A stretch of 64,000 nt of DNA from a virus (IMGVR_UViG_3300029288_000076:96001-160000), one strand, 5' to 3'; positions 29,783 through 50,792 are shown, counted from the first letter of the stretch. The notes: generated by a model from the sequence alone, not told the origin. A program made the numbers and translations.

Positions 29783-31117
29783 TTATAGTCCTCCCTTTCC
29801 TATTGCTTTGTATAAAAATCCTAACTCTGTTACTTTAACAGAATCAAAAACATTTCTTCCATCTACAATTATAAAAGTATTCATCAAACCTTTAATATCT
29901 TCAAGATCAATAGCTAGATATTCTTTATGCTTAGTAGCTACTACCAAGGCATCAGAATCTTTCAAAGCAGTTTTAATGTTATTTGTTAAATTAACACCAT
30001 GAAATTCTTTTACATAAGGATCATGGACTATAACTTCCGAACCTAAAGATAATAATTGATGAACCAAATCATAAGTAGGACTATTTCTAATGTCATCTGA
30101 ATTTTCAAGATAAGCAGCTCCCAGTATAGCTACTTTTATATTGGTAAAACGTTTCTCTTTAATTGTTAAGCATTCATATAGTAAACTAATGATATGATGA
30201 GGCATAGAATTATTAATACTTCTTGCTAACTCTACGAATTGAGTATGAACAGTTTTCTTTCCATATAACTTAAGACCATATAGCAATAACCAAGTATCTT
30301 TTGGAAGACAGTGGCCACCAACTCCAGTTCCTGGCAAATGCATCATTCTCTCAGATCTAGTATTTATAAGCTCTTGTACTTCATACACATTAATTCCAAG
30401 ACTTTCACAAATTAAAGCCATTTCATTTGCAAAAGCTATATTAACGTCCCTATAAGCATTTTCAATAGTTTTTGTAGCTTCAGCTGTTTTTATATTTGTA
30501 GTATAAATTGGAGCCTTTATTATTGATGAATATAGCTTCTTAGCTCTATATTCACTTTCTTTATCAAACCCACCTACTATTCTTGGAAGTTCTTTTATAG
30601 ATTGTAATAGCTTTCCGGGCATTAGTCTTTCAAATGAATAAGCCAATAAAAAATCTTTTCCTGCTTTTAAACCTGTTTGCTCTATAATTGGTATTATTAT
30701 GTTTTCAGTAGTTCCTGGAGCAAGAGTAGATTCTATAATTATAAGCGCTCCTGACTTCATCTTCCAACTCATTTCATGAATTGCTTCTTTAAGATCAATA
30801 TAATCTGGTTCATTATATTGATTTACTGGAGTTTGAACGCAAATTATAATAATATCTCTGTCACTTAATCTTGAATAATCATCAGTAGCATAAAAAGACT
30901 TTTTATCCACAACTCTTTTAATTAATTCTGCTAATTCAGGCTCATCACCATTTATAGTAGATTCACCAGCATTAAGTGTTTTTATCTTCCATTCACTATT
31001 CTTTGCTCCTTTCTCTAAACCTACAACATGATTGTCTTCAACATCAGCTAATAATGCTGCGCACGGGAGACCAACATATCCCATTCCTATTACTGCTATT
31101 TTTACTTGATTGTTCAT
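29783..31117 (-). CDS. wecC: nucleotide-sugar 6-dehydrogenase (UDP-ManNAc/UDP-GlcNAc dehydrogenase, WecC/WbpA family)
   Basis: GMGYVGLP, ICVQTP, ESTLAPGTT, ERLMPG, ENAYRDVNIAFANE, GVGGHCLPKD, DDIRNSP. Confidence 0.9.
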   Translation of the reverse strand: MNNQVKIAVIGMGYVGLPCAALLADVEDNHVVGLEKGAKNSEWKIKTLNAGESTINGDEPELAELIKRVVDKKSFYATDDYSRLSDRDIIIICVQTPVNQYNEPDYIDLKEAIHEMSWKMKSGALIIIESTLAPGTTENIIIPIIEQTGLKAGKDFLLAYSFERLMPGKLLQSIKELPRIVGGFDKESEYRAKKLYSSIIKAPIYTTNIKTAEATKTIENAYRDVNIAFANEMALICESLGINVYEVQELINTRSERMMHLPGTGVGGHCLPKDTWLLLYGLKLYGKKTVHTQFVELARSINNSMPHHIISLLYECLTIKEKRFTNIKVAILGAAYLENSDDIRNSPTYDLVHQLLSLGSEVIVHDPYVKEFHGVNLTNNIKTALKDSDALVVATKHKEYLAIDLEDIKGLMNTFIIVDGRNVFDSVKVTELGFLYKAIGKGGL

Positions 31118-31120
31118 ACT

Positions 31121-32965
31121 TTAATGAATCACATTACTAAATTGACCTTCCCTACGAACAGTCAACTTGTCAGGAACTAAAGGATCAAGCAAAGAATTGT
31201 GATTAACTAAGAAAATAGAATTTAATCCACCTTCTTCTGCTAATTTATTTTTTAACAAAGAAATTACAGCTTCGCACCCACTTAAATCAAGAAACGAAAA
31301 CGTTTCATCAAGAATTAAAACGTTACTTTTATTTGTAGTAACTAGATCTCTAAGAGCAAAAAGAACAGACAAATTCAACCTTGTTTTTTCACCACCAGAA
31401 AGAGATTGGTAATCATATTCAATTCCATCAATACTGATATTAAATGAAATCTTTTCTCTTTCCTCCCCAGACTTAAGTATAGCTTTATTAGAAAATAAAA
31501 CTTCTATATTTGTATAACCTATTTCACTAAGATAGAAATTAATTTGTTGGTTAAAAACGTCAATTATATTATCCAAAATAAAACTACGTATTCCTTTTTT
31601 CCCAAAAGATTTTTCCCAAAAAGAAAGTATCTTTCTGTCTTCAATATACTTCTTTTCTTTTTTCTCTTCTTCATCAACTTCATCAGCTAATTTAACAAGA
31701 TCTTTTTGTATTTTCTCGATATCTTTTTCTAAATTAGGGATAGTTAAGTCTTTCTCGTTTATTCTACTTTCAAGGTCTTTTAACCTTGATGTTAGATTAT
31801 CAATTTCTTTTTGTTTTAATTTAACATCATTTTTTAACTTTTCTTGATTTCTAAAAGACTCTCTCGCTTGCTTTTCTAGCTTTACTACTTCTTCATTTAG
31901 GCCAGCCAACTCCTTTTTCATTTCAGTTTGACTAAGATTGTTATCAGCCAGCTCGGCTTTAATAGGAATAAGTAACTCTTCAAAAGAATTTATAAGCTCT
32001 TCTTTATTAGCTTCAAATACTGAACCACAAGTTGGACATTCTCCAGCATTAATGACTTTAATTTTATCTATATATTTCCTTTGTTCTCCTTCTAGCTTTA
32101 TTTCTTCTCTTTCAGCAGAAAGTAATTTTGTTTTTATCTTTTCAACTTCTTCTTTTTTCTTTTCAACTTTATCATCATTATTTTCATCATACTCTAAATT
32201 ACTTAAATTAAATTGTAACTTTTCAAGTTCAGAATACAATGGCTTTAAAGCAACATTTATTTTATCTTTTTCTCCTTTTAATTCCCAATGCTTTTGTTTT
32301 TGAATCTCTTCATAAGCTTCTTTGTTTTTTTCTAGCACATCAAGATTTTCTATATAAGCCTTTAATCTTGTATTTAGATCTTTCACCACATATTTTGATT
32401 CATTCAAAAGTATATCAATGTTTTTAATATCAAGATCTACTTTACTACGACCAATTTCAAACTTTATAAGATTTAGAATCTTGTCAAACAAATCTTTTTG
32501 ATTTGCGTCTGTTGAATCAATAAAGAAGCTTGCTCCTTCTTGAGAAATATAAGAAAGAATTTGAAAAATTTCTTGTGAAATATTTAAGCGCTCATAAAGA
32601 ACTGCTTCTGTTTCTTTAATAGTTTTTTTCTGAAATTCTTTTTGACCTTTTCGTAAAATAAGATTATTTCCAAATTGAGAATGCTTTCTATAACGCTCAA
32701 CAATCAGACCATCATCAAATTCTACAGTCGCAATACAATCTTTATCGATTACTTTATTAACTACAGAATCTCCTGAAATGCCTTTTGTTGTGGTTCCAAA
32801 AAGACAAAAGAAGATAGCTTCAGATAAAGATGTTTTTCCTACCCCATTAGAAGTAAAAAATCTATCTTCCGATTCACCAACAATCTGAACTAATCCTTGG
32901 CCTTTTAGATTAACTTCAAAATCTTTAAAGCACATAAAGTTCTGAGCTGAAACTTTAGAGAACAT
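31121..32965 (-). CDS. Rad50/SbcC-like recombination ATPase (T4 gp46-like)
   Basis: NGVGKT Walker A, CPTC zinc hook, coiled coil, LSGGE signature, LILDE Walker B. Confidence 0.93.
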   Translation of the reverse strand: MFSKVSAQNFMCFKDFEVNLKGQGLVQIVGESEDRFFTSNGVGKTSLSEAIFFCLFGTTTKGISGDSVVNKVIDKDCIATVEFDDGLIVERYRKHSQFGNNLILRKGQKEFQKKTIKETEAVLYERLNISQEIFQILSYISQEGASFFIDSTDANQKDLFDKILNLIKFEIGRSKVDLDIKNIDILLNESKYVVKDLNTRLKAYIENLDVLEKNKEAYEEIQKQKHWELKGEKDKINVALKPLYSELEKLQFNLSNLEYDENNDDKVEKKKEEVEKIKTKLLSAEREEIKLEGEQRKYIDKIKVINAGECPTCGSVFEANKEELINSFEELLIPIKAELADNNLSQTEMKKELAGLNEEVVKLEKQARESFRNQEKLKNDVKLKQKEIDNLTSRLKDLESRINEKDLTIPNLEKDIEKIQKDLVKLADEVDEEEKKEKKYIEDRKILSFWEKSFGKKGIRSFILDNIIDVFNQQINFYLSEIGYTNIEVLFSNKAILKSGEEREKISFNISIDGIEYDYQSLSGGEKTRLNLSVLFALRDLVTTNKSNVLILDETFSFLDLSGCEAVISLLKNKLAEEGGLNSIFLVNHNSLLDPLVPDKLTVRREGQFSNVIH

Positions 32966-33237
32966 AAATCAAACCTTTAAAACATATAAATTATCCAGCA
33001 TATCTACTTCTTAATTCTTTGCCTTTATCAAAAGCAGCATCCCATTTTTTAATTTTATTATTCTCATCTATCACTCTGCGATTATCATATTTATAATTTC
33101 TATATTCATCTGGTTTACACCAAGTGCATGGAATAGCTTTACCAGCCTCTTTCATTCTACTATCATAACAAAAACCTGGTGGAGTAGAACAAATAAAAGT
33201 CGTTATACAAATTCCAGTATCATGACATTGATTACAC

Positions 33238-33471
33238 TTATACATTTTTCACCTCAACATCAAAATTATAAAGAATAGATTCTTTTTCTTTATCTGGAAG
33301 TTCTTCTAATTCATCTTGATCATAGCTTTCAAGATATAATTCAGTTGCTTCTTTAAGATTATATTTAGCATCTTGAATAGTAATACCTTGAGAAACTATA
33401 TCGACTTCAAGACATCTAGCTACATAATACTTATCTTCTTTTGTTATTACTCCAGTTAATACTTTTTTCAT
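33238..33471 (-). CDS. HicB-family antitoxin-like protein (no adjacent HicA)
   Basis: KEDKYYVARCLEVDIVSQG.T..DA..NLKEA.ELYLE. Confidence 0.85.
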   Translation of the reverse strand: MKKVLTGVITKEDKYYVARCLEVDIVSQGITIQDAKYNLKEATELYLESYDQDELEELPDKEKESILYNFDVEVKNV

Positions 33472-33497
33472 TTCATATCCTTTTTAAAAAGACAGAA

Positions 33498-34216: not shown

Positions 34217-34557
34217 TTCTCCTTAGCATATTTAATACTATCAAGAAAAATTTCAATAGCATAATCTATAGAACTTTTTGATTCTTTATTTCTCGTTACA
34301 TACTCTGGAAGATCAATATCAAAAGGTATACATAAGCAAGAAGGATAATCTTTATTACAAACACTACACCATATAAAACTTTCATATTCAGACCAATGTA
34401 AGCGCTCGTCAAAATTACCATCAGTAACTAAATCGTATTTACAAATTGGACAATGATAGCCAAGCTCGCAAGGTTGATCAAAAGGAATTACGCCTTCTAT
34501 TTTCCTTTTACCAACTATTTCTTCTGCTCTTTTATTTATAGAATATTCTTTAATAAT
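34213..34557 (-). CDS. 114-aa zinc-binding protein with apparent ATT start (not in ORF track)
   Basis: Stop-free frame filling the gap: IIKEYSINKRAEE...DQPCELGYHCPIC...LHWSEYESFIWCSVCNKDYPSCLC; AAGGAG 8 nt upstream; TAATT overlap. Confidence 0.6.
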   Translation of the reverse strand: MIKEYSINKRAEEIVGKRKIEGVIPFDQPCELGYHCPICKYDLVTDGNFDERLHWSEYESFIWCSVCNKDYPSCLCIPFDIDLPEYVTRNKESKSSIDYAIEIFLDSIKYAKEK

Positions 34558-34786
34558 TAGCTTTTCTCCTTTATAAGCATCAAATCTTTATAGAAATCAT
34601 TTTGCCTTTCTATAAAACTATTAGAAAACATTCCTGATTCAAACCCGCAACCACATTCAACTAAATACATTTTACAATCTGGACAATAATATTCTATAGC
34701 AGAACAATATGGTGTAGGACATGACCAATAATTATGTTGGACTTTATTTTTATGCTCTACTTCACAATTATCATCTGGATCATATT

Positions 34787-35851
34787 TCATTCCAAATACT
34801 CCAACCCTTTTTTAAGTAACTTTTCTTTATTTTGCTTAACCCATTCATCATTTTTGCTTACAAAATTAAGATAATTTTCCAGTACTTTTTTGTTATCGCT
34901 TAGATCTTCAGTTTGAATTCTAACTGCAGAAATTTTTTTGTCTGGTTTCAAATCAACAACAACATTTTTATTTTTATCTTTATATTCCGTTTGGCTAAGT
35001 TCTTTCCATAACTCTTTTGAAGCTTTTACCTTAACAAAACTCTCGTCTATATTTGTAGGCTGAACACCTTTTTCACAAACTATTTCTATTTCACCATCAT
35101 CTTTTTCTATATAATCAAGTGTATGAAATTCTGGGTGTTGAGTTGGAATATATTCAATAGATAAATCATCATATAAAACAGAAAAATATTTTTTAATTCC
35201 TTCATCTCCAAAATCTTTTTGAGCAATAGAACCTGGAAAAATAACATCTTGGCAAATCTGCTTAGTATGAATATGACCAGAAACAATCATTTTGAATTTC
35301 TTAAACAGCTTTTCAGGATCAATATTGTCTTTAGCTTTTATCAATTCATAATTACCAACTACAACTCCCGGGACAGATTGGTGAATAAAAATTACATCTC
35401 CTTCTCTACTAATATTAGAAATACTATCTCCATCAGAAACATAAGGATGAAAAGCTATTTTTAATCCACCAATAATACAATCATGAAAATTTTCATAAAG
35501 CCATATACCTGGAATATTATAGAAAGAATGTAATACACTATCTTCAAAATAAGAAAAATAGTCATGATTACCAGGAAACAAATGTAAATCAATATTTCTT
35601 GGTTTATTTTTAAATAAATCGTAAACATCATTAAACAAAACTGTTTTCACAACTTCCGAAGAATTAAAAATATCGCCAAGGAAAATTATATTCCCAATAT
35701 TATTCTCTTTAGCATAATCGAATATTCTTGCTACTTCATTAATCAGAAGTTGAGCGCGAGAATTTTTTCCATTATCAAGCTGCTTATTGAACTTAGCATA
35801 CAAGTCAAAATGAATGTCCCCAATAATTACTGCTACAAGTTGTTTACTCAT
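34787..35851 (-). CDS. Mre11/SbcD-like nuclease (T4 gp47-like)
   Basis: GDIH, LGDIF, PGNHD, SGHIH, PGSI.Q.DFGD metallophosphoesterase motifs. Confidence 0.93.
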   Translation of the reverse strand: MSKQLVAVIIGDIHFDLYAKFNKQLDNGKNSRAQLLINEVARIFDYAKENNIGNIIFLGDIFNSSEVVKTVLFNDVYDLFKNKPRNIDLHLFPGNHDYFSYFEDSVLHSFYNIPGIWLYENFHDCIIGGLKIAFHPYVSDGDSISNISREGDVIFIHQSVPGVVVGNYELIKAKDNIDPEKLFKKFKMIVSGHIHTKQICQDVIFPGSIAQKDFGDEGIKKYFSVLYDDLSIEYIPTQHPEFHTLDYIEKDDGEIEIVCEKGVQPTNIDESFVKVKASKELWKELSQTEYKDKNKNVVVDLKPDKKISAVRIQTEDLSDNKKVLENYLNFVSKNDEWVKQNKEKLLKKGLEYLE

Positions 35852-36041
35852 CTAATAATTCCTTAAATAAAGAACAATAAGGTTTATTATATTCTTTAAG
35901 CCTAAAAAGAAGTTCATGTTCACCATATTTACCTAGATACTTATATGCATTTGATTTTAACGTTGTTATTAATCTAAAAGATAGGCATTCGTCTCTAATA
36001 CATTGCTTACCAGTATTTGGACAACATTTAATCTTATTCAT
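35844..36041 (-). CDS. small Cys-rich protein, probably leaderless
   Basis: KCCP..GKQC..D.C; ATG overlaps the promoter 21-mer. Confidence 0.55.
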   Translation of the reverse strand: MNKIKCCPNTGKQCIRDECLSFRLITTLKSNAYKYLGKYGEHELLFRLKEYNKPYCSLFKELLDE

Positions 36042-36060
36042 ACTATATTATATTTTAAAA
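36040..36060 (-). promoter_or_regulatory. conserved phage promoter upstream of the Mre11/Rad50 unit
   Basis: Exact 21-mer. Confidence 0.8.
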
Positions 36061-36068: not shown

Positions 36069-37118
36069 TTACAAAAACTTGTTTAAAACTTCCATTATTC
36101 TTTCTACAGCATGACCGTCCCATAATTTATTAATTTTATAATATAAAATGTTCAAATTTAAGAATTTATTAACTAAATCATTTATGGTTTTTTGATCTTC
36201 AGTTACAAAATTATTCCCATGCAAAGTAGTAACTTTATGCGGTGTATGATAATTATATGTAATACAAGGTTTATGTAAAATATAAGATTCACATTGAACT
36301 CCACCACTATCTGTAATAACAAAAGAAGCATTACATAATTTATTAATGAATTCTGAATAACTCATTGGCTCAACTAACTCTATGTTTTTTGATAAATATC
36401 GTTTATCAAACATAAAGACTTCTTTTATTCTAGGGTGAGCAGATAGTATAACAGGAATCTTATCTGCTACATTATTTAAGATTTCCAAAATACTTCTAAA
36501 ACCATTATCAACATTTTCTACACGGTGAAAAGTAGCTAAACAATACTGCTTGCTATTAAAATCAATCCACTTTGTATGGTGTAATCTTATTGAATCAGCT
36601 AAAACGTTACCTACAAGATGTCCATTTGCTAAGGTCTCACTCTTCAAATTTATCATTCCAGATTCTTCAGTTACAAAATTATATGTTGACATATGATCAA
36701 TAAGTTTTCTGTTTATCTCTTCTGGAAAGTCAAATCTTCCAACTCTTAAGCCTGCTTCTACGTGAGCGATGGGAAAGTCTTTTTTCTGAGCAAACAAAGT
36801 TCCAGCCAAAGAAGAATTCATATCACCAAATACTACAAACAAATCAGTAAAGCTTTCTAGAGAAAGGTTTTCAAAATATAACTTTTCTAGTTCAATAAGA
36901 ATTGAACCTGTTTGGTGAGCATGACCTTTTCCTGAACGCTCTAATCTATAATCAGGTTGGAAACCAAATTCATCAAAGAATACTTGGCTCATAGAATTTG
37001 AATAGTGTTGTTCTGTAAAGATAATTTTATAGTTAGTAAAATTAATCTTTTTAAAATACTCTATAAACGGATAGAGTTTTACAATATTAGGTCTACCACC
37101 AATACAAAAAACAATCAT
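36069..37118 (-). CDS. wecB: UDP-N-acetylglucosamine 2-epimerase (non-hydrolysing)
   Basis: GGRPN.VK, T.QHY, GDMNS, HVEAGLR, PEEINR, TFHR.EN, TDSGGVQ.E, WDGHA.ERI. Confidence 0.93.
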   Translation of the reverse strand: MIVFCIGGRPNIVKLYPFIEYFKKINFTNYKIIFTEQHYSNSMSQVFFDEFGFQPDYRLERSGKGHAHQTGSILIELEKLYFENLSLESFTDLFVVFGDMNSSLAGTLFAQKKDFPIAHVEAGLRVGRFDFPEEINRKLIDHMSTYNFVTEESGMINLKSETLANGHLVGNVLADSIRLHHTKWIDFNSKQYCLATFHRVENVDNGFRSILEILNNVADKIPVILSAHPRIKEVFMFDKRYLSKNIELVEPMSYSEFINKLCNASFVITDSGGVQCESYILHKPCITYNYHTPHKVTTLHGNNFVTEDQKTINDLVNKFLNLNILYYKINKLWDGHAVERIMEVLNKFL

Positions 37119-37758: not shown

Positions 37759-38481
37759 TCATCTAAATCTTCCTTTAAAATAATAACGAAGTTTGCAAAC
37801 AAGATTACAATGATCCATGTTTTGACACATCACTAAACTTGGTTCATGCCAAAGATGAGCGCCATAAATATTATCTGGATAGATTGCTTTAATCCCATAG
37901 TTTGCCATATTATAATGAAGCATAATGTCACACCAAGGACGTTTAATATCATCTAACAACTCCATATCCTTCTTTCTAATGGCACCAAGAAAAAAGTAAT
38001 TTTGAATCGCTACTTTTCCAGATCTTATAGTTGGGGGATTAATTTGCCAATCTTCATTAACTAATTTTAGCCATCCATAAAAATTATTTACATTGTTAGC
38101 TTTTTCAGTTAATTCTTTATTCACATTTGCTACAGTACAAAAAGAAGCTTGGTCAGGCAAACAATTATCAACCAAAGTTTGTAGAATATTATCGCTCATA
38201 TAAACAACATCAGCAGACTGCATCACTATAATATCAGTATCTTCAGGAACAAAATCAACTATAAAGCTCATCATTGTATCAAAACTATAATGTTGATCAA
38301 GTCTTTTATATTTCACATTATGAAAATAGCTTTTAATAATTGACTCAGGATCTATAGTAGAATTATCATCTACTATACAAAGCTGGTATTCAAAATCAGT
38401 TTTCTGCTTTGTTAAAGAATAGAGTACATATGGGAGCAACTTCTCTTTATTGTAAGTTGGCATATAAATTGAAACTTTCAT
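37759..38481 (-). CDS. GT2-family glycosyltransferase with Cys-rich tail (paralog 6; start revised to MKVSIY)
   Basis: PTYNK, IVDDNS, SADV, WCD, Cx5Cx3C. Confidence 0.85.
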   Translation of the reverse strand: MKVSIYMPTYNKEKLLPYVLYSLTKQKTDFEYQLCIVDDNSTIDPESIIKSYFHNVKYKRLDQHYSFDTMMSFIVDFVPEDTDIIVMQSADVVYMSDNILQTLVDNCLPDQASFCTVANVNKELTEKANNVNNFYGWLKLVNEDWQINPPTIRSGKVAIQNYFFLGAIRKKDMELLDDIKRPWCDIMLHYNMANYGIKAIYPDNIYGAHLWHEPSLVMCQNMDHCNLVCKLRYYFKGRFR

Positions 38482-38498
38482 TATTCTAAACCATTTAT

Positions 38499-42098: not shown

Positions 42099-43087
42099 AT
42101 ATCTAAAAGCTTAAAAACAATTATCGCTATTTTTCTATTATCTTCAATCCATTTTTTGCCATATTTCTTACTTGCATCAGAAAAAAGTTTAAGATACTCT
42201 TCAGGTATTTCTATTTTAGAAATTGGTTTTTCTTCAACGATCGGTTTCTTTACTTCTATTATAGGTACTGTTCTCCAAAAAGACTTTTTTGGTTTATTAG
42301 GGTCTATTTTTTCCAAGTGCTTCAGCCAAAATTCATCTTTCCGTATACAGTGATAAGGACAAGTATCAATAATCTTACATTCATACATTGTTTTAGGATG
42401 CCTTTGATGAATAACCTTACAGTCATTTAATAGTATAGCTTTGAAATTTTTTTCTTTCATCAATTGATGCAGCGTAGCATCGCAAGCGTTATGCTCAATT
42501 CTTATGCTTCTAAGATCATCAGCTAAAATACCTCCGCAGAAAAATAACCACGAGTGATAAGGAGCGCCAGTATAAAATGTAGAACTGTTTTTACATAGCA
42601 ATCCATTTGTTAACACAACATCAACATATACTTTATAATTATCCCAATTATTTATATATTTTTCTATATTAGAATCAAAATTTAAATACATATTATCATC
42701 AATAGGAATATCAATAACTTCTGTCATCGTTATTTGTTTAGAATCAGTATTGTCTACTATTCTTTGCAAAATATGATCTTCAGTATAAATAACATCAGAT
42801 GATTGTAAAACAACAATATCTGTATTTTTATCCATCACATCAAAACAATGCCCATGAGAAAGCGTCACACCTTCATTTTTTGGTAATCTTTTATATCTTG
42901 CGTGAGGAAAGAATTTTCTTATTATTGGCTCTGGATTAACATTAGAGTGATCATCAATAATACAAACATCAAAATCAAAATTCGTTTTTTGCCTGGCAAG
43001 AGAATATAGAGCATTTGGAAGTTGATTATTCTTATTCCAAGTAGCCATAAACACAGATACTTTAGATTTCATCTTTCTCCTTTTCAA
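42068..43087 (-). CDS. GT2-family glycosyltransferase with Cys motif and C-terminal extension (paralog 3)
   Basis: ATWNK, IIDDHS, ACD, IHQRH, Cx5Cx3C plus about 85 extra residues. Confidence 0.85.
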   Translation of the reverse strand: MKRRKMKSKVSVFMATWNKNNQLPNALYSLARQKTNFDFDVCIIDDHSNVNPEPIIRKFFPHARYKRLPKNEGVTLSHGHCFDVMDKNTDIVVLQSSDVIYTEDHILQRIVDNTDSKQITMTEVIDIPIDDNMYLNFDSNIEKYINNWDNYKVYVDVVLTNGLLCKNSSTFYTGAPYHSWLFFCGGILADDLRSIRIEHNACDATLHQLMKEKNFKAILLNDCKVIHQRHPKTMYECKIIDTCPYHCIRKDEFWLKHLEKIDPNKPKKSFWRTVPIIEVKKPIVEEKPISKIEIPEEYLKLFSDASKKYGKKWIEDNRKIAIIVFKLLDIWKEEMEKKS

Positions 43088-43877
43088 AATGTCTCTTTAA
43101 TTTACAATCAACTTCACAAGTCTCTAATTGAGAGCATTTAATCCAAGTATCAGAATGTGGTTGATGGATAGCAATAGGAGTATCTATAAATAATGGATTA
43201 AATCCTTGTTCTACTAAAGCTAAATGAAATAAAACATCGCACATAGGTTTTCCTATTAAAACTTTTTCAAGATCTGTTCTCATTATAGCCATTAAAAAAG
43301 GATACATTGGTCTTTCTTGATTAGATCTAATTACTGGTTTTTCTTCTTCTAAAACATCATAAAAATGATTAACATAAAAATTAAAAAGTTGTTCATAATC
43401 ATCATTAATAAAATTTAGTAAAGTATTGGCATTATATGTATTTACTAAAACAGGTTGTCCTTTATTAACATAAGTACTCATCATATCTAAAAGAGTATCA
43501 CTTGACCATATAGTATCTGCTGATTGAATAATAACTATTTCACTATCAACAGAAATAAGACTGAACATACTGTTCCAATAAATTACATCAAATCCTTGTT
43601 TTTCTGTGTATCTATAATATTTAACATCTGGAACATATTTCCTTATTATAGACTCTGGATCTATATCTGAACAATCATCAGCAACACAAATTTCATAATC
43701 AACATCACTTAATTGTCTAGTTATAGAATAAAGTGTTCCTGGTAAAACTGCTTGTTTGTTATAAGTACAAAAGAATATTGACGCTTTCTTTATAGGAACC
43801 TTTCTTTTTTCAAAATCATTTACTTCTATAATTTTATATGGTAAAAGTTCTTTTTTATTGTAGTATGATAAATACAT
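43062..43877 (-). CDS. GT2-family glycosyltransferase with Cys-rich tail (paralog 2)
   Basis: CTYNK, VADDCS, MCD, IHQPH, Cx5Cx3C. Confidence 0.85.
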   Translation of the reverse strand: MYLSYYNKKELLPYKIIEVNDFEKRKVPIKKASIFFCTYNKQAVLPGTLYSITRQLSDVDYEICVADDCSDIDPESIIRKYVPDVKYYRYTEKQGFDVIYWNSMFSLISVDSEIVIIQSADTIWSSDTLLDMMSTYVNKGQPVLVNTYNANTLLNFINDDYEQLFNFYVNHFYDVLEEEKPVIRSNQERPMYPFLMAIMRTDLEKVLIGKPMCDVLFHLALVEQGFNPLFIDTPIAIHQPHSDTWIKCSQLETCEVDCKLKRHFEKEKDEI

Positions 43878-43879: not shown

Positions 43880-44674
43880 TTAATTAATCCATTTTTCTTG
43901 TTTTTTGACGCAGTCAAATTTGCACTTTTCAACCTCAGAACATATATGTATTCCTTTATTGTGACGCTGGTGAATAGCTTTAACTCCTGGATAAACAGCG
44001 TCCCACCCTTCAGTAACTCTAACTTTTCTAGTCTTTTGATCTAAAATAGCATCACACCAATGATTTTGGACTCCTGTAAAAAGCAAATCTTTCTTCATTA
44101 TTGCTCCAAGATAAAAAAGCCAGCTGTCTCTTTCTTTACCAGAAAAAAGATTCCAGCAACCAGAAATAACCTTACTATTATATTCACTCTTCAAAGTTAC
44201 AGACCAATAATAATTTTTGTAGTCATTCCAATGACAAATAATATCATTAAGATTAATTTCAAATTCTTTCCAAAAATCTGGGAAAATTGGTGTATTTATA
44301 ACGTCTGCAAAAGAGAACTTTTTATTATCTACTCCTTCACAAAGAATGTTGATTGTATTTTCATCTGCCCATATAACATCTGAACAAGTCAAGATTACAA
44401 CATTAGACTTAATAGATGATAATCTAAAAGCAGCAGGAACAGCTTGAAAAACACCTAGTTTCTCTTCTGATCTTCCAAATTTATATTCAAAATTAGTTAA
44501 AAACTTCTTAACAATAGGTTCAGCGCTTTCGTCTGAACAATCATCCCAAATACAAAACTCAACGGGAATATCTGTCTTTTGTCTGTTCATAGAATATAGT
44601 GTATTTTCTAGAGCCCATAATCTATTATGGACCGCAAAAACAACGCTTACTTTTTCAATATTTTTTGTATTCAT
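43880..44674 (-). CDS. GT2-family glycosyltransferase with Cys-rich tail (paralog 1)
   Basis: AVHNR, IWDDCS, WCD, IHQRH, Cx5Cx3C. Confidence 0.85.
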   Translation of the reverse strand: MNTKNIEKVSVVFAVHNRLWALENTLYSMNRQKTDIPVEFCIWDDCSDESAEPIVKKFLTNFEYKFGRSEEKLGVFQAVPAAFRLSSIKSNVVILTCSDVIWADENTINILCEGVDNKKFSFADVINTPIFPDFWKEFEINLNDIICHWNDYKNYYWSVTLKSEYNSKVISGCWNLFSGKERDSWLFYLGAIMKKDLLFTGVQNHWCDAILDQKTRKVRVTEGWDAVYPGVKAIHQRHNKGIHICSEVEKCKFDCVKKQEKWIN

Positions 44675-45564
44675 TAAATTTTAACCATCCTATATACTCC
44701 GCCAGAGCCACAAAGCTTTCTTTCATCTTTGTATTGACACCACGGAAAACCTTGGTCATCAAAAGTTACTGCTTCTAAAAAATCTGTATGCTCTTTTTCA
44801 AGTAAGTTATATTTATCAGAAATATATTTAGAATCAAAAAAATCTTTTAGATCTAATTTGCTTGGATATCCACCTATAAAATCTATTTTAGCTATAGACA
44901 ATTTGATAAAATCTTCAGGCTTATAAGCAATTGAAACGGGACAATCCTCCCCATCTGTAGATTTTGAAAATACATAATCAGTATTATCTAATGCACTATA
45001 CTTATCAGAATTTGGATAACCGCTTTCTTTACTAGAAAGAATCCTTAAAACAAAAGCCACATAAAAATGAAAGAAAATACTGTCTCTATTATACACCATT
45101 AAATTAGCATGACAATCTTCTTTTAAATAATCATATAAATAGTTAAGTATTTCTACTGGTTTATTTACATGGTGCAAAACTCCCCCGCAGTGAACATGAT
45201 CAAATTCTCCAGAAAAGTCACCAATATTAGAATTTTGATTTGTATTAAGAATTAATGCTACTTTATCTTCATAGCCATATAACTTTACTCTTTCATTAGT
45301 AATATCTAAAGCTTTTTTAGAAACATCACAACCAACTACAAAGTCAGCGCCAGCTTTTAAGAATTCAATTACGTCATGTCCTGGACCGCAACCATAATCA
45401 AGAATTTTCTTCCCTGCATAATCTACATTCTCAAGTTCTAGCATTTTCATAGCCATTGGATATTGAGCACTTCTCCAAGCTAAATAATCATCCGATTCCT
45501 TTATTGACGTAAAATACTTATCATAAATAAGATGCTTATTCCAGTATTCATCAACTTGGGTCAT
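44674..45564 (-). CDS. class I SAM-dependent methyltransferase (start revised to MTQVDEYW)
   Basis: ILDYGCGPG, GCDVS, FDHV...GVLHH; GGAGG RBS. Confidence 0.9.
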   Translation of the reverse strand: MTQVDEYWNKHLIYDKYFTSIKESDDYLAWRSAQYPMAMKMLELENVDYAGKKILDYGCGPGHDVIEFLKAGADFVVGCDVSKKALDITNERVKLYGYEDKVALILNTNQNSNIGDFSGEFDHVHCGGVLHHVNKPVEILNYLYDYLKEDCHANLMVYNRDSIFFHFYVAFVLRILSSKESGYPNSDKYSALDNTDYVFSKSTDGEDCPVSIAYKPEDFIKLSIAKIDFIGGYPSKLDLKDFFDSKYISDKYNLLEKEHTDFLEAVTFDDQGFPWCQYKDERKLCGSGGVYRMVKI

Positions 45565-46192
45565 GTGTAACCTCCAAAACCAAAATCTCTCTTCCCGGAA
45601 CAGTAAACCTATCAATCTCTACCATACCAAGTCTCAAGAGCATTTTTGTCATTTTAATATTTCTTATATCCATTGATCCCCAAGTAGCAAAATAGCCTAA
45701 CTTTTTATGTTCATCAATAACCATTTGAATACAAGTTTTTACCATTTCTCTTCCTTCTGGGGTCCCTTGATATTCAGGAATCATGGTTATAAAACCAAGA
45801 TGAGCTCTAGGATCTCTAGCTTTCCTAGTTTTCTTATCCATAGTGTTAAAAAATAATTGCATTAAGGCATTGAGAACATAACGCAAATGAAATACCCCGG
45901 CAAGCATGCGCTTTATCCAGATCCATGGTATTCTAAATCTATATTTTCTATTAAAACATTCATAGAGCAAAGCTTTATTAAAATAGCCAACAGCATAGCA
46001 AATTATCTTACCATGCTTTTCTGCATAAAAACCAAAAGCTAATCCTGAAGAAACAAGATAGTTATAAAATAAAGTAAGATATTCTTCGCCCAAAAGTTTA
46101 GTAAATTCATAATCATAGAATGTATCTAAATGAATTTGAACTAATTTTCTAGCAAACAAATAACTATTAAAGAATGGTCTGTAAAAAATCAC
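45551..46192 (-). CDS. GNAT-family acetyltransferase
   Basis: LVQIH..F...LG..L..Y N-terminus; PEYQG motif A; N.KM...L.RLG. Confidence 0.65.
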   Translation of the reverse strand: MIFYRPFFNSYLFARKLVQIHLDTFYDYEFTKLLGEEYLTLFYNYLVSSGLAFGFYAEKHGKIICYAVGYFNKALLYECFNRKYRFRIPWIWIKRMLAGVFHLRYVLNALMQLFFNTMDKKTRKARDPRAHLGFITMIPEYQGTPEGREMVKTCIQMVIDEHKKLGYFATWGSMDIRNIKMTKMLLRLGMVEIDRFTVPGREILVLEVTHDPS

Positions 46193-46784
46193 TGAATGTC
46201 CTCATAAAAGTAATATAATATTCCATATGACCTACATCGTTTAAATGTACTCCATCTTGTAGTAAAAGATTTTGAACAATTTTGTTTTTAGTGAGCCAAT
46301 CTTTTTCATGATCTACTAAAATTACTCTATGATTATAATTGCTTCCAGATATAAAATCCTCAACCACATTTCGTATAACACCATTATATACATGACATTG
46401 TGGGTAGATAGTGTTTTTTATAGCTGGATGATTTGTAGCAACAAAAACAACTTTAATATCAAAATTAAAAGCTCTTTCTATAATTTCATATAGATTATAC
46501 CTAAAAGAATTAAGAGAAACCCTTGATAATCCTTTATCTGTTTCCCATCTATTACAATCATTCAAGCCATATTGAACATATAAGTAATCTGCTTTTGCTT
46601 CTTGTACGTCATGCGGCATGCGCTCAAGAGCCTGCCTTGTAGTCTCACCATTCCTTGCAGAAATCTCAATAGAATAATCTTCTTCTAATTCTTTAGCTAC
46701 AAGATATATCCACTTATTTGATAATGATATATGTTGTCCATCGACAGTAGAATCTCCCCAAAATAGAAACTTCTTTTTAATCAT
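46167..46784 (-). CDS. SGNH/GDSL hydrolase or acyltransferase
   Basis: GDST, NGETT, QYGLND, DGVH blocks. Confidence 0.9.
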   Translation of the reverse strand: MIKKKFLFWGDSTVDGQHISLSNKWIYLVAKELEEDYSIEISARNGETTRQALERMPHDVQEAKADYLYVQYGLNDCNRWETDKGLSRVSLNSFRYNLYEIIERAFNFDIKVVFVATNHPAIKNTIYPQCHVYNGVIRNVVEDFISGSNYNHRVILVDHEKDWLTKNKIVQNLLLQDGVHLNDVGHMEYYITFMRTFSDFLQTIL

Positions 46785-47151
46785 TCAAACTCCTAATCCA
46801 CAATTCATTTGGTATAGCATAGGCAGCATCAATAGCTAGAAATTTAATTCCTCCTGGTGGATATAATCTACACTTATCCCAAATACCATAGTCTTTTATA
46901 TTACGACATATTTGCTCAAGTATTCTATCTTGAGCTTCTTTAGAAATTTCACAATTAAACCAAAAATGTCTTACTACAAAATGAAGCTTATTGTCTAAAG
47001 AGCTTTCCCCACCACCCTCTTTATAGTATGTTACGCAAATACAAATATGACGATCTATATCGCTATCTTTTTCTTTTTGAAAATAAAAAGGTAAAGAATC
47101 TATTTCATAACCTTCAATATTCTTAAACGATTCATTAATCATTTAACCTCC

Positions 47152-47985
47152 TTAGATACGATTAAGTAAATTTTGTTTTTTAAAAGCAAAACATAAAACG
47201 CCTAATACATTTCCATTGTTTGGAAATAGAAAATAAGATCCTTTCTTCCAAGCATTTTTATCCCAATTTATATATCCTGGAAGTTCGTTCACATAACCAT
47301 AAATCAATTCAGATCCTAAAAACATTTCTTGTATATGCCTAACATTTATATTTGTAATATTCTTAGCTCTATCACCATATCCTAATTCCCCATTCATTAG
47401 ATAATCTATAGTAAAAATAATTATACCTCCAGGAGCCACTAAGTCCCAGCATGCTTTTAAGTGTTTTTCATATTTATCAACACCATAGCAAATTGGTATA
47501 TGTTCTAAAACAGATATATTAAAAACTACATCAAAAAATTCTTTTTGTAATGGTAATTCTTCTACCAAACCGACCACCATTTTTGCTTCATAATCTTTTA
47601 ATATTGACATAAAAGATGTCCATTCAGCTTCTAGATTATTTCTTAAAGCCCAAATAAGAATATCAGTAAGATGTTCATAATCAGAAGAAAAGACTTTATG
47701 GATTGTTAAATCTGTTTGCTCCATTAATAAAGCTGAAACAAAAAGCATATCAGAACCAATATCTAAAACTTTCTTTCCTTTTAATCCTCCATGAAAATTA
47801 GAAGCAATATTTAATACAGTTGGATACTCTTTCAATCTTGTAGTGCAGGAACAAAAAAATATCATTTCTTCTTTTTGATATTGTGTAAGTTCTAACCATT
47901 CTTCAAGTTTAAGTTCGTTAGACATCCAGTCAAAAGCTTTAATATAGTATCTAATATCTTCTTGAGAAGGATTCTTTAAAATCAT
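47152..47985 (-). CDS. class I SAM-dependent methyltransferase
   Basis: R.KEYP, VLDIGS, FDVVFNISVLEH, PGG..IFT.DY. Confidence 0.85.
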   Translation of the reverse strand: MILKNPSQEDIRYYIKAFDWMSNELKLEEWLELTQYQKEEMIFFCSCTTRLKEYPTVLNIASNFHGGLKGKKVLDIGSDMLFVSALLMEQTDLTIHKVFSSDYEHLTDILIWALRNNLEAEWTSFMSILKDYEAKMVVGLVEELPLQKEFFDVVFNISVLEHIPICYGVDKYEKHLKACWDLVAPGGIIIFTIDYLMNGELGYGDRAKNITNINVRHIQEMFLGSELIYGYVNELPGYINWDKNAWKKGSYFLFPNNGNVLGVLCFAFKKQNLLNRI

Positions 47986-48911
47986 TTCAAATTTTTAAGA
48001 TGCGTATAAGTTTCTGTTACTGGATTATTTTTGTACCAATCAGTTGCCCTATCAATTCCACTTTGTAATGGTGTGAAACCTAGCACTGGTTGTCCAAATT
48101 CTTTGATAGTTAAATCATTCTCTAAAATCAAATAAGGTATATCGTCGTCACCACGTTCTTTAAAAATAGGGTCTTTTTCTATATTCAAACTCTTGCACAT
48201 CGCATTATACAAATCAACAATCTTATATGATCTTCCTGACGATACATGGTAAGCTCCATGTCCATTACTTTTAAGTATTGCCTGGAGCAAATAAAAAAGC
48301 AAATCATTTATATAAACAAAATCTCTTTCAACTCCAGTTACTACTGTGCAATCTTCTCCTTCAGTTAATCTCTTGAAAAATGTGGGCACAGGACCTGATA
48401 AATTACGTTCGCCGTAGCAGTTAGCTAATCGAAAAGAAACATAATCAATTCCAGACATTGCTATATATCTTTCAGCTGCTGTTTTTGAAATAGAATAGCT
48501 ATTAGTTGGGGCTATTTTATGTACAACTGGAATTGGAACTATCTCTGGCCATCCATAGCAAAGTGATGTTTGCATATAGATAATTCTTTTCACTTTATTA
48601 TTTTTAGCTGCTTTAATAATATTAACTGTCCCAAGTACATTTGTAGCACTATCGCGATACCAATCTTCAGGATCTTTATATGACGCTGCACAATGTACTA
48701 CAACTTCTGGTTTAACGAGTTCAAAAAGTTCATTAACCCTGCCAATATTCTCTATTGTATCTGCAACAAAGTATTCCATTCTAGCATCAATGTTTTTAGC
48801 TTTACCTGTTGACAAATTATCTATTCCATATACTTGATGTCCCCTATCAATAAGTTTGTTTGCTAAATGAGAACCAATAAATCCAGCAACCCCAGTTATT
48901 ATGACATTCAA
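47982..48911 (-). CDS. NAD-dependent epimerase/dehydratase SDR, WbmG/WbmH-like
   Basis: TGVAGFIGS, AASYKDPEDWY, QTSLCYG, YSISK, RLAN; the ASYKDP.DW and QT.LCYG motifs recall Bordetella WbmG/H. Confidence 0.9.
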   Translation of the reverse strand: MNVIITGVAGFIGSHLANKLIDRGHQVYGIDNLSTGKAKNIDARMEYFVADTIENIGRVNELFELVKPEVVVHCAASYKDPEDWYRDSATNVLGTVNIIKAAKNNKVKRIIYMQTSLCYGWPEIVPIPVVHKIAPTNSYSISKTAAERYIAMSGIDYVSFRLANCYGERNLSGPVPTFFKRLTEGEDCTVVTGVERDFVYINDLLFYLLQAILKSNGHGAYHVSSGRSYKIVDLYNAMCKSLNIEKDPIFKERGDDDIPYLILENDLTIKEFGQPVLGFTPLQSGIDRATDWYKNNPVTETYTHLKNLK

Positions 48912-49555
48912 TTAGTTTCCTCCCTATCTTTTTTCTTTCTAGTTTCTTTTTTATTATGATAACTAAAATGTTCTCCAACAGTCATCATTTGCAAATTTGT
49001 CAAATCATTATTTTTACTATTCCCATCTTTATGATGAATAACGCAACCTTTTGGTATTTCTCCATAAGCTTCTCCCCAAACTAAACGATGCATTAACCTT
49101 CTTTTATCTCCTTCATTGTAAATTGATATATAATTGCCACTATCAAGTACTTCACCTTTCCACCTTGAATTTTTCTCCCTTATAGTACTTTCTCTCATTT
49201 TCCTCTTTGCTTCTTCGGAAAGATGTTTTCCTGTTTGGGCTTCGCTCATCCGCTTTCTAGTTTCTAAAGAGAGATTTTCTATTTTATGACATTCACTTCT
49301 ACGCTTCTTTGTCTCTTCGGAAAGATTTTCTGTTTTATTAATAAAACTTATTTGTTGCCTTGTTTCTTTAGAATGATGTTTACCTTTCATGCCAAAATTA
49401 TGATTATTTTTAGCATTCCACTTAGAAACACAAGAGTGACAACAAAATAATGACTCTTTCTTCTTCTTTTTTCCACACTTATATTTATTTAGAATTTCTT
49501 TTCCGCACTGTTTACAACACTCTTTATTGTCATCCATTCTATAACATTTCTCCAT
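48908..49555 (-). CDS. HNH homing endonuclease with NUMOD3 repeats
   Basis: GKHHSKETR, GKHLSEEAKRKM; HRLVW...IHHKDGN..NN...NL. Confidence 0.9.
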   Translation of the reverse strand: MEKCYRMDDNKECCKQCGKEILNKYKCGKKKKKESLFCCHSCVSKWNAKNNHNFGMKGKHHSKETRQQISFINKTENLSEETKKRRSECHKIENLSLETRKRMSEAQTGKHLSEEAKRKMRESTIREKNSRWKGEVLDSGNYISIYNEGDKRRLMHRLVWGEAYGEIPKGCVIHHKDGNSKNNDLTNLQMMTVGEHFSYHNKKETRKKKDREETN

Positions 49556-50792
49556 CTATAAAGTTTCTAAAAAATAATTCCAAGCTCAAAGCACCCAAAA
49601 TTGTCCTACCATATTCTGATTCCAATGATGCTGCTATTAATATTTCATCACAATTAAAGATACCACGTTCTCGCGTTCTTTGATCATTAAATAAATCGCT
49701 AACAAATTCATTTGCAATACCATCTCCTTGTATCCATTTCACAAAAGGAGTTGTAAAGCCCATCTTGTTTGTTCTATTTAAGACTTTCTCAGGCAAATAC
49801 TTTTCTCCTGCTTTCTTAAGAATATATTTTAATTCTTGATTCTTAAATTTAATCTCAATTGGGACTTCTTTAGCAAACTCAACAATAGCCCTACTTAGCA
49901 AAGGTGCATAAGTTTCTATACCAAAAGCTCTTGGGAGCTTTTCATCAATAGCTAATAACGTTGGTAGATCATATTGAATTTCTCCAACCATTACTTGCTC
50001 AAGAGTTTTTGTTTCCATACAAGGATAAAATATATTCATTGGAAAACGATCTTTAGCATATATACTAGGGACTTTGCATCTAAGAATAGAATTATTATAT
50101 TGTAATAAATCCAAATATCTTGTATAACCTAACCAAAGTTCGTCTCCCCCTTCACCTGTTAGAAGTATGTCTACCCATTTCGAAGCTTCTTTGTAGACAA
50201 TATATTGGCTAAAAGATCCTGGACCACCGCAAGGTTCTTCTAACCAATAAATAACGTCTTGTATATTATCTACAAAATCTTGTTCATCAATAATTACAGG
50301 ATGCAAAATAAGATTTGGATATTTATTTGTTACTGCTTTAATATAAGGCCATTCATTGTAACCTTCATAAAGAAACAATCCTGAGAAAACATTAAAGTCG
50401 CAATCAGGATTTTGAGTTGCTGCTACACCAGTTACAAAAGAACTATCTATTCCGCCAGAAAGAGAAAAGCCTATTTCATCAGCGCTTTTATAAGAAAGAG
50501 ATTCTTTAATAGAGTTCTCTACAAGATACGTTAGTGTTTTTATTGCTCTATCTTCTGTAAGATTATCATAATTAAAATAGAAATTAGCTAATTGAGAAGG
50601 TCTTTCTCTAAAAATACCTTTAAATAATGTTTCAGAAGAAGTATAGTATTGATATGTAATGTACTCTTGAAGAGCTTGTTCGTTTAGCTCTATTTTAGGT
50701 TTGCCATTTTCATCTTGGGGTAAATATTTAAAAAGATCAACTATCCTATCTGAATAGTGTCTAACACCGTAACCATTAATATAGTATTGCAA
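49539..50792 (-). CDS. asparagine-synthetase-family amidotransferase, synthetase domain only
   Basis: LSGGIDSS, LLTGEGGDEL..GY, P.L, K.ILK, R.KMGF..P; no N-terminal Cys1 glutaminase domain. Confidence 0.85.
   Translation of the reverse strand: MQYYINGYGVRHYSDRIVDLFKYLPQDENGKPKIELNEQALQEYITYQYYTSSETLFKGIFRERPSQLANFYFNYDNLTEDRAIKTLTYLVENSIKESLSYKSADEIGFSLSGGIDSSFVTGVAATQNPDCDFNVFSGLFLYEGYNEWPYIKAVTNKYPNLILHPVIIDEQDFVDNIQDVIYWLEEPCGGPGSFSQYIVYKEASKWVDILLTGEGGDELWLGYTRYLDLLQYNNSILRCKVPSIYAKDRFPMNIFYPCMETKTLEQVMVGEIQYDLPTLLAIDEKLPRAFGIETYAPLLSRAIVEFAKEVPIEIKFKNQELKYILKKAGEKYLPEKVLNRTNKMGFTTPFVKWIQGDGIANEFVSDLFNDQRTRERGIFNCDEILIAASLESEYGRTILGALSLELFFRNFIDGEML

Follow-up and report, generated by a model that had tools for sequence, protein, structure and literature searches.

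A candidate uronic-acid/uronamide glycan pathway interleaved with recombination genes in an uncultured phage

Gene content of the block

The 64,000-nucleotide stretch IMGVR_UViG_3300029288_000076:96001-160000 (the window) corresponds to bases 96001-160000 of a single contig of 186,386 bp (30.5% G+C) that represents a phage genome, ~90% complete according to CheckV and denoted G000 below. Positions 29783-50792 of the window contain, on the minus strand, a set of genes for glycan enzymes (the block), among which the genes for the recombination proteins Mre11 and Rad50 are interleaved; the minus strand carries three quarters of the G000 open reading frames (ORFs) and every gene discussed here. 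Coordinates are window positions unless prefixed otherwise. The enzyme families of the block, including six family 2 glycosyltransferases (GT2), were assigned by Pfam, NCBIfam and PDB sequence searches, and the genes are as follows.

49539-50792, minus strand: Asn-synthetase-like protein of 417 aa with the synthetase domain only (Pfam Asn_synthase 4.7e-53, residues 90-383)
48908-49555, minus strand: homing-type endonuclease, NUMOD3 plus HNH_3 (Pfam HNH_3 7.9e-15)
47982-48911, minus strand: extended short-chain dehydrogenase/reductase (SDR), a WbmH/WbmG-like nucleotide-sugar epimerase/reductase (Pfam Epimerase 5e-41; PDB 2q1w 1.7e-79 and 2pzk 6.9e-61)
47152-47985, minus strand: S-adenosylmethionine (SAM)-dependent methyltransferase, a G000-specific tailoring gene (Pfam Methyltransf_11 1.7e-7; without a homologue in the relative G001)
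46777-47142, minus strand: 121-aa ORF with no match in Pfam, NCBIfam or PHROGs
46167-46784, minus strand: SGNH/GDSL hydrolase-fold enzyme (Pfam Lipase_GDSL_2 3e-15), N-terminus without a signal peptide
45551-46192, minus strand: probable GNAT acetyltransferase of 213 aa (ESM Atlas feature search 0.97; PHROG acetyltransferase E 0.007)
44674-45615, minus strand: conserved SAM-dependent methyltransferase (Pfam Methyltransf_12 2.9e-14; 33-38% identical to two G001 methyltransferase domains)
43880-44674, minus strand: GT2 paralogue a (PF00535; G001 ortholog 65%)
43062-43877, minus strand: GT2 paralogue b (PF00535; G001 ortholog 63%)
42068-43087, minus strand: GT2 paralogue c, with a Lys/Glu-rich C-terminal tail of ~80 aa (PF00535; G000-specific duplicate)
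41325-42098, minus strand: GT2 paralogue d (PF00535; G001 ortholog 65%)
40304-41065, minus strand: GT2 paralogue e (PF00535; G000-specific duplicate)
39391-40188, minus strand: RNA ligase, interleaved but outside the sugar pathway (Pfam RNA_ligase 3.7e-19)
between the RNA ligase and GT2 paralogue f, minus strand: two ORFs without a match
37759-38535, minus strand: GT2 paralogue f (PF00535), directly upstream of wecB in G000 and in the relatives G001 and G002
between GT2 paralogue f and WecB, minus strand: two small ORFs without a match
36069-37118, minus strand: WecB, non-hydrolysing UDP-GlcNAc 2-epimerase (Pfam Epimerase_2 6e-69; TIGR00236 227 bits, cut-off 210)
34787-35851, minus strand: Mre11/gp47-like nuclease, an interleaved recombination gene (Pfam Metallophos)
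31121-32965, minus strand: Rad50/gp46-like ATPase, an interleaved recombination gene (Pfam AAA_23 and SbcC_Walker_B; tblastn to phage exonuclease subunits)
29783-31117, minus strand: WecC-type UDP-N-acetyl-hexosamine 6-dehydrogenase, 4 nt downstream of Rad50 (three UDPG_MGDP_dh domains)

An earlier note on this DNA had named these enzyme families, described their genes as co-oriented and placed wecB and wecC on either side of the Mre11 and Rad50 genes, all of which the searches bear out. Its count of six GT2s also holds: a genome-wide scan with PF00535 detected seven GT2 domains, six of them within one 7-kb stretch, so that the clustering exceeds chance. Throughout the block the ORFs overlap or abut, and all reading frames are intact and tightly packed. 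In addition to the sugar enzymes, about 14 in number, the block holds the HNH endonuclease, which is a passenger with no role in the pathway, the RNA ligase and ~10 small ORFs. Among the small genes located between the enzyme and recombination genes are five ORFs of 50-85 aa for zinc-ribbon-like mini-proteins with CxxC pairs (35844-36041, 34557-34790, 32991-33245, 41062-41253 and 40149-40325, all on the minus strand).

The two enzymes that flank the recombination genes are assigned with different precision. WecB passes the cut-off of TIGR00236, which is an equivalog model for the non-hydrolysing enzymes, and the WecC-type protein scores 397 bits against the NCBIfam model of the nucleoside-diphosphate (NDP)-sugar dehydrogenase subfamily, with UDP-ManNAc dehydrogenase as the best specific model, under that model's cut-off. 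The SDR is most similar to PDB entries 2q1w and 2pzk, which we take to be Bordetella WbmH and WbmG. Among the tailoring enzymes, the GNAT assignment of the earlier note stands as a look-alike, in that the matches in the Atlas feature search are Acetyltransf_1 clusters and a faint PHROG match points the same way; there is no Pfam or NCBIfam match. The SGNH enzyme probably acts on the glycan as an O-acyl esterase or transferase. Altogether, the block contains the set of nucleotide-sugar enzymes that makes uronic acids and uronamides in O-antigen loci, with an AsnB homologue that lacks the glutaminase domain.

This AsnB-like protein had been described as an Asn-synthetase amidotransferase. The Asn_synthase domain is indeed present, with an intact SGGxDS motif of the PP-loop, but the glutamine amidotransferase part of the description does not hold, as the N-terminal GATase (glutaminase) domain is absent. 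The gene starts with TTG, 8 nt behind a GGAGGA ribosome-binding site. The closest relatives are likewise short, with lengths of 410 aa (62% identity), 398 aa (46% identity) and, in G002, 415 aa, whereas the bacterial AsnB homologues are ~625 aa long, possess GATase domains and share at most ~30% full-length identity with the phage protein. The glutaminase-less AsnB homologue is a candidate sugar-carboxylate amide ligase. A 157-aa ORF upstream (50845-51318) was considered as the missing glutaminase half and rejected: it is Cys-rich and shows no GATase similarity, and the short form of the AsnB-like protein is conserved. In G000 this Cys-rich ORF separates the AsnB-like gene from an 86-aa ORF (51315-51575, minus strand) with 65% identity (BLASTP) to the G001 ORF located directly upstream of the AsnB-like gene; the 86-aa ORF may, judging from this similarity, belong to the glycan module.

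All six GT2s give PF00535 domain matches above the gathering cut-off. Together with four GT2s from one relative, they align end to end at 24-40% pairwise identity, with invariant DD, D and C-D columns of the catalytic type, and the DD...D...D residues are kept in all six. An invariant Cys precedes the catalytic Asp in every GT2 of the family, including those encoded at L002:16975-19296, L004:1794-2522 and L091:9983-10777. The proteins further share a C-terminal His2Cys3 motif, HQxH-x6-9-C-x5-C-x3-C, which probably forms a metal (zinc) site; we know of no such site in characterised GT2 enzymes. The AlphaFold model of paralogue d has a GT-A fold (pLDDT 91). Among solved structures it comes closest to K4 chondroitin polymerase and heparosan synthase 2, both synthases of uronic-acid polymers, and among viral models to GT2s of giant viruses (TM-score ~0.6).

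A word-indexed search of 5.8 billion proteins gave 16 relatives of these GT2s, and an HMMER profile search of 1.84 billion representatives gave 82 at E < 1e-30, the His2Cys3 motif being retained in ~60 of the top 90 metagenomic relatives. The family members that were sampled are all unnamed metagenomic proteins, on contigs of up to 152 kb. The subfamily was not found in cultured phages, where the best match (TarP, E 8e-4) reflects the shared GT2 core, and the searches returned no named bacterial member. Based on these comparisons, the GT2s are best described as paralogues of a single subfamily restricted to phages and metagenomes.

Ownership and relatives of the block

G000 is an uncultured phage with only distant kin among known phages, as indicated by the Rad50 homologue, which is less than 30% identical to anything among 50,697 phage records, and by the absence of any megablast match of the block to these records. 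Searches of cultured phages by tblastn with a GT2, a consensus-like member of the GT2 family, the SDR, the AsnB-like protein and WecB gave only weak or contaminant matches, a metagenome scan retrieved only bacterial full-length AsnB at ~25-28% identity, and a scan of the genome collection for relatives returned nothing useful. Close homologues of block proteins reside on metagenomic contigs of 73 kb (NCBI), 72.6 kb and 37 kb. Scans of IMG/VR for related contigs yielded only two, G001 (3300035698_024877, 95 kb, 64% complete) and G002 (3300033149_003257, 152 kb, 25% G+C, 49% complete), the latter a jumbo-phage fragment.

In G001, the layout is the same, comprising a short AsnB (62% identity), an HNH gene, the SDR (68%), methyltransferases, three GT2s (63-66%), a fourth GT2 (64%), WecB (65%), Mre11 (63%) and Rad50 (69%). 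Four of the six GT2s have one-to-one orthologues in this relative and the other two are extra duplicates in G000; the G001 GT2 beside wecB is 64% identical to paralogue f. The genes between the SDR and the conserved methyltransferase, which would tailor the product, differ: G000 has a methyltransferase, the 121-aa ORF, the SGNH enzyme and the GNAT candidate, and in G001 their place is taken by a 215-aa ORF and an 803-aa methyltransferase fusion. In both phages an HNH gene (L002:10534-11334 in G001) separates the AsnB-like gene from that of the SDR, so that it is either an old insertion or marks a recurrent target site.

In the more distant G002, the core consists of the SDR (47%), a short AsnB (23%) and a GT2 of the family (35%) followed directly by WecB (36%). 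The core is thus conserved at 62-69% identity in G001 and at 23-47% in G002. The WecC gene was not found in the G001 and G002 fragments, both of which are incomplete. In G002, the core is part of a sugar island of more than 30 kb (L096:6646-18886, L091:128-12025) that also encodes a hexapeptide acyltransferase, an amidohydrolase, a TylF-type O-methyltransferase, three GT-D-like proteins, a family 4 glycosyltransferase (GT4), a DegT aminotransferase, three SDRs, an enolase-superfamily protein, PyrE/PyrF-like genes and a dCMP deaminase.

Could the block be an O-antigen cassette acquired recently from a host, a perhaps decaying passenger? The earlier note had raised such a capture, with export genes elsewhere in the genome. 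The enzyme families are indeed typical of bacterial O-antigen loci, and an HNH gene and a TnpB-like gene are located nearby. However, the composition and codon usage of the block are indistinguishable from those of the rest of the phage (GC 30.0 vs 30.7%, GC at third codon positions 18.6 vs 19.9%, codon-usage r 0.975) and the frames are intact; four GT2s have orthologues in G001 at 63-65% identity and the core persists in G002; and the AsnB-like protein is far removed from its bacterial homologues. The notion of a recent capture was rejected given the codon match, the GT2s found only in phages and metagenomes and the presence of the core in two diverged phages, and it is in our judgment extremely improbable. 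Because phage-like composition and codon usage coincide with a phage-only GT2 subfamily and with a core shared by G001 and G002, the comparison of these genomes indicates that the block is a phage pathway of long standing, inherited vertically and still diversifying.

Candidate pathway and acceptor of the glycan

The earlier note had seen no Wzx, Wzy, ABC exporter or initiating phosphoglycosyl transferase in this region, and this absence extends to the entire genome. When all 380 ORFs of the 186-kb genome were scanned for hydropathy, no polytopic membrane protein with more than four hydrophobic segments was detected, which implies that no Wzx, Wzy, WaaL, WecA-type primer, ABC permease or GtrA/GtrC is encoded; a genome-wide search for export genes on this basis found none. 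None of the block enzymes has two or more predicted transmembrane segments, and there is no Pfam match to an initiating phosphoglycosyl/GlcNAc-1-P transferase among the block ORFs. GtrABC membrane proteins were likewise lacking in the hydropathy scan, the only trace being a faint PHROG 'GtrB-like' match (E 8e-4) to the shared GT2 core. The proposal that the product is not a standard exported polysaccharide is supported and strengthened by the lack of polytopic membrane proteins genome-wide. Since there is no lipid-carrier machinery, assembly would proceed on a soluble cytoplasmic acceptor, unless host enzymes are borrowed.

We consider it probable that the block specifies a self-contained cytoplasmic glycan assembly that is owned by the phage, consists of soluble enzymes, does not export its product and acts on an acceptor determined by the phage. 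As shown by family membership, WecB is predicted to convert UDP-GlcNAc to UDP-ManNAc and the WecC-type dehydrogenase to oxidise the latter to UDP-ManNAcA. The WbmH/WbmG-like SDR would then re-configure the nucleotide-linked uronic acid, and the AsnB-like enzyme could adenylate the sugar carboxylate and form an amide with ammonia or an amine at the expense of ATP, yielding a neutral uronamide. The six soluble, inverting GT2 paralogues would add sugars stepwise, with paralogue f, always beside wecB, as the candidate ManNAc transferase, and the two methyltransferases, the probable GNAT and the SGNH enzyme would decorate the chain by O-methylation, acetylation and de-acylation. As no primer, flippase, polymerase, ligase or exporter is encoded, the chain presumably grows in the infected cell with a soluble macromolecule as its direct acceptor.

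As acceptors the earlier note had considered the modified cytosine of the DNA, virion proteins and the host surface. Two other loci of the same phage bear on the nature of this macromolecule. The first is a putative module for cytosine modification, in the same gene array upstream of the block, which the earlier note had called a thymidylate synthase (TS)/beta-glucosyltransferase (BGT) module and which is real.

62260-62820, minus strand: thymidylate-kinase-like kinase (Pfam)
61181-62260, minus strand: T4-BGT-like GT-B protein of 359 aa (Atlas look-alikes carry PF09198, T4-Gluco-transf)
60189-61196, minus strand: TS homologue of the dCMP-hydroxymethylase type (Pfam; best PDB match MilA)

The TS homologue, the only one in the genome, matches the CMP hydroxymethylase MilA at 1.6e-29 and true synthases at 1e-15; it retains the catalytic Cys and has Asp at the positions of both ThyA-169 and ThyA-177. 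According to a published signature rule, Asp at ThyA-177 denotes specificity for cytosine and a retained Asp169 denotes the hydroxymethyl rather than the 5-hydroxy type (PMC13326640), so that the protein belongs to the hydroxymethyl-cytosine type. The BGT-like ORF shows only a sub-threshold Pfam match (Glyco_trans_1_2) and no PDB or sequence homologue, and its single-sequence model has a pLDDT of 30; its Atlas look-alikes (features 0.97-0.98, structure TM-score 0.74) are viral clusters with the T4 beta-glucosyltransferase family. The order of kinase, GT-B and TS homologue is the same as in DLP3 gp78-80, RB69 gp45-48 and RL38J1 gp214-216 (PMC13326640). This triad and the block belong to one co-oriented array and are 9.4 kb apart. 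A dCMP deaminase gene (59738-60202, minus strand) adjoins the TS homologue and, the latter being the sole and apparently cytosine-specific enzyme of its kind, G000 seems to rely on the host for dTMP while making dUMP itself.

The second locus, ~82-85 kb before the window start (G000:C1:11208-14165, minus strand), encodes a 985-aa protein that combines GT4 (GT-B), SAM methyltransferase and GT2 domains. The gene sits between those for the minor head protein and the tape measure, among genes for tagged ADP-ribosyltransferases; the N-terminal tag of these neighbouring effectors is missing from the GT4-methyltransferase-GT2 protein.

With respect to expression, a k-mer search revealed a 14-mer, TTAAAATATAATAT, with 12 exact copies in the genome, nearly always intergenic and co-oriented with the genes; those in the window, all on the minus strand, are at 59277-59290, 36045-36058 (just upstream of Mre11), 19143, 18171, 13174 and 7306. 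This element is, from its distribution, a likely phage promoter core. From the copy preceding gp32 to that preceding Mre11 no further one occurs, so that a single transcript of ~23 kb may include the glycan block. Sigma-70 and terminator scans gave no more matches than shuffled sequence.

The leading candidate for the acceptor, which we favour tentatively and below even chance, is the phage's own particle proteins, on which the chain would be built. This reading rests on the all-soluble design and on the presence of a GT-methyltransferase-GT enzyme among the head and tail genes, which would take part in particle glycosylation. The GT-D fold is known from bacterial protein O-glycan elongation, and G002 encodes GT-D-like enzymes; furthermore, lineage-specific tailoring is expected for an exposed glycan under selection. 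The cost of a chain of at least six tailored sugars would also be ~40-fold lower on some thousands of capsid sites than on the ~57,000 cytosines per genome (both the cytosine number and the cost ratio are our own estimates from 30.5% GC). Several observations weigh against particle proteins. No acceptor protein was identified, and Ser/Thr-rich tails are absent from all ORFs; the fold matches of the GT2s are generic for GT-A; and the GT4-methyltransferase-GT2 protein has no G001 homologue and is perhaps unrelated to the block. No late-type promoter could be defined, and the k-mer search gave no early and late classes. Moreover, the block lies outside the structural region, among the replication and recombination genes from gp32-UvsX-UvsW-RNase H to Mre11-Rad50. 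In T4, the alpha-glucosyltransferase gene is directly upstream of 47/46 and the beta-glucosyltransferase gene is beside gene 42 and uvsX, so that the position of the block upstream of the gp47 homologue is that of the T4 alpha-glucosyltransferase, in a phage that possesses a 5-hydroxymethylcytosine (hmC)/BGT module.

These last facts speak for DNA hypermodification, in which the BGT-like enzyme would put the first sugar on 5-hydroxymethylcytosine and the GT2s would extend it into an unusually long oligosaccharide, carrying amide, methyl and acetyl groups, that shields the DNA against nucleases of the host. We regard this as a serious but rather unlikely alternative, and are equally doubtful of its detailed form, a penta- to hepta-saccharide with an N-acetylated hexuronamide, methyl and acetyl groups. 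Besides the T4-like positions, it is favoured by the TS homologue with the hydroxymethyl-cytosine signature and MilA as nearest relative, by the kinase, by the gene order shared with DLP3, RB69 and RL38J1, by the PF09198 look-alikes of the GT-B protein and by the co-orientation of the block with gp32, UvsX, UvsW and RNase H without an intervening TTAAAATATAATAT copy as far as Mre11; amidation, by removing the negative charge of a uronic acid, would suit DNA packaging. Phage GT-A and GT-B enzymes are known to build mono- to tri-saccharides, including HexNAc, on hmC, with epimerases and secondary GTs encoded nearby (bioRxiv 10.1101/2023.12.21.572611), and phages encode their own NDP-sugar synthesis for DNA glycans (PMC13326640). 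However, known DNA glycans have no more than three sugars, fewer than the six or seven transfers with tailoring that this reading requires, and the modification would by our estimate add ~50-60% to the DNA mass and demand sugar on the scale of the entire lipopolysaccharide of a cell. The GT2s lack, in an alignment inspected by eye, the R...DDD...EDY/F motifs of proven DNA GT-A enzymes, and the block starts 9.4 kb from the triad. Finally, G001 (95 kb) and G002 (152 kb), both incomplete, contain the glycan module, and no TS homologue, Tet_JBP or BGT-like gene was detected in their available sequence, which weakens the link to modified cytosine.

Two further acceptors are less probable. Remodelling of the host envelope, in which the phage enzymes would decorate a lipid-linked intermediate of the host (O-antigen, capsule or a common-antigen-like glycan) that the host flippase, ABC transporter and ligase then export, with a surface change that, for example, excludes competing phages, is improbable in our view. 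In its favour, O-antigen loci contain the same enzyme families, with AsnB-like genes also present in those of the wbm type, and 2q1w and 2pzk are matched by the SDR; for the lipopolysaccharide-like genes of pelagimyophages and cyanomyophages, remodelling of the host envelope is the published reading (PMC7029224). It would, however, make the phage totally dependent on the host, as no initiating transferase, flippase, polymerase, ligase or GtrA/GtrC-type partner is encoded genome-wide. In addition, the GT2 subfamily has no named bacterial member, the regions read show no sign of lysogeny, and 20 kb is a considerable investment for a surface change that is only transient. With a pI of 4.9-6.6, most of the GT2s are acidic and in this differ from typical membrane-peripheral O-antigen transferases, an argument that we judge too weak to separate the readings of the acceptor. 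Still lower on the scale, and quite improbable, is another soluble acceptor, be it a non-structural phage or host protein, RNA, a free glycoconjugate or a nucleotide-sugar sink that reprograms envelope synthesis in the host. Nothing in the sequence fixes the acceptor, all the enzymes are soluble, and the RNA ligase and the small zinc-ribbon-like ORFs are interleaved with them; but there is no positive evidence for such an acceptor, and four anciently diverged orthologous GT2s argue for a defined multi-sugar product over a metabolic sink.

Comparison with known systems and adjacent genes

In Bordetella bronchiseptica and B. parapertussis, the wbm locus, with the SDRs WbmF, WbmG and WbmH and AsnB-like amidotransferases, is responsible for a uronamide-containing polymer of N-acetylated uronic acids. 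The block resembles the wbm locus and the wbp loci of Pseudomonas in the related SDR with a neighbouring Asn-synthetase homologue, the UDP-HexNAc 2-epimerase and 6-dehydrogenase, and the methyl and acyl tailoring. Unlike these loci, it has no initiating transferase, ABC or Wzx/Wzy export or ligase, its AsnB lacks the glutaminase domain, no 3-amino (WbpB/E/D-type) enzymes were seen, its GT2s are phage-only and it is located among phage recombination genes. With the phage clusters for DNA glycosylation (T4 gp42 with the alpha- and beta-GT, those for the 5-hydroxycytosine glycans of RB69, DLP3 and RL38J1, and the GT-A/GT-B clusters from the metavirome that act on 5hmC), G000 shares the triad, own nucleotide-sugar synthesis, several GTs and a position of the block like that of T4 a-gt. 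Those clusters, however, attach one to three neutral sugars, whereas the block comprises six GT2s with amide, methyl and acyl tailoring, is 9.4 kb away from the triad and recurs in relatives in which no triad was found.

Among viruses that glycosylate their own particles, chlorovirus PBCV-1 encodes capsid glycan enzymes, including the GT-GT-methyltransferase A064R, and mimivirus encodes gene clusters for fibril glycans. The block is similar to these systems in combining soluble GTs, methyltransferases and virus-encoded sugar-nucleotide enzymes without a lipid carrier or export; G000 also has a multi-domain GT-methyltransferase-GT enzyme, and giant-virus GT2s are the nearest viral fold matches. 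It differs from them in lying outside the structural operon, and neither a ManNAcA-type uronamide nor His2Cys3 GT2s are described there. Glycans are also reported on the capsid and tail tube of mycobacteriophages (Freeman et al. 2023, as cited in PMC12619734). Finally, the 'host recognition cluster' of pelagimyophages and cyanomyophages (PMC7029224) is comparable in being found in large phages of the aquatic type and in having many GTs and sugar-nucleotide genes, among them a UDP-sugar 6-dehydrogenase, and an unproven target. That cluster, however, is in the tail-fibre region and dominated by GT8, whereas the block is GT2-based, lies in the replication and recombination region and is accompanied by an hmC module.

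Large phages rich in glycan genes have been published already (PMC7029224; PMC12619734). What is new here is the predicted uronic-acid/uronamide chemistry in a phage, the six-copy His2Cys3 GT2 subfamily, the conservation of the core across three diverged phages and the occurrence in a phage that also has an hmC/BGT module. Neither product nor target has been shown for any of the big sugar clusters of phages, and the block is a good test case, with its own precursor, no membrane steps, at least three diverged phage lineages and a phage predicted to modify cytosine. The GT2 subfamily itself is compact and well-folding, has a probable zinc site and is not known from cultured organisms. If the acceptor were DNA, no natural DNA modification known would come close to the product in complexity; it would be the work of the His2Cys3 GT2s of several uncultured phage lineages, would redefine the degree of elaboration possible in nucleic-acid modification and would provide new enzymes for DNA glyco-engineering. 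If it were the particle, large phages of Gram-negative hosts would join giant viruses and actinophages among the viruses known to glycosylate proteins, with a bearing on phage stability, host recognition and immune recognition.

Some observations concern the surroundings of the block. G000 and G001 share Mre11, Rad50 and the glycan genes (62-69% identity) as well as a terminase-like protein (84%), and their replication modules differ (L002:1-8500 in G001 versus 52000-64000): PolA, an MT-A70 methylase and a clamp loader are encoded in G001, the UvsX proteins share only 30% identity, and BLAST gave no match for gp32. From the genes compared, this difference looks like a module swap. Directly upstream of the block, inside the replication array, there is a TnpB/Cas12f-like ORF (51588-52667, minus strand) with a Cas12f1-like TNB domain (1.8e-20). 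The window contains two NUMOD3 plus HNH_3 genes, that of the block at 48908-49555 and another at 55123-55746, both on the minus strand.

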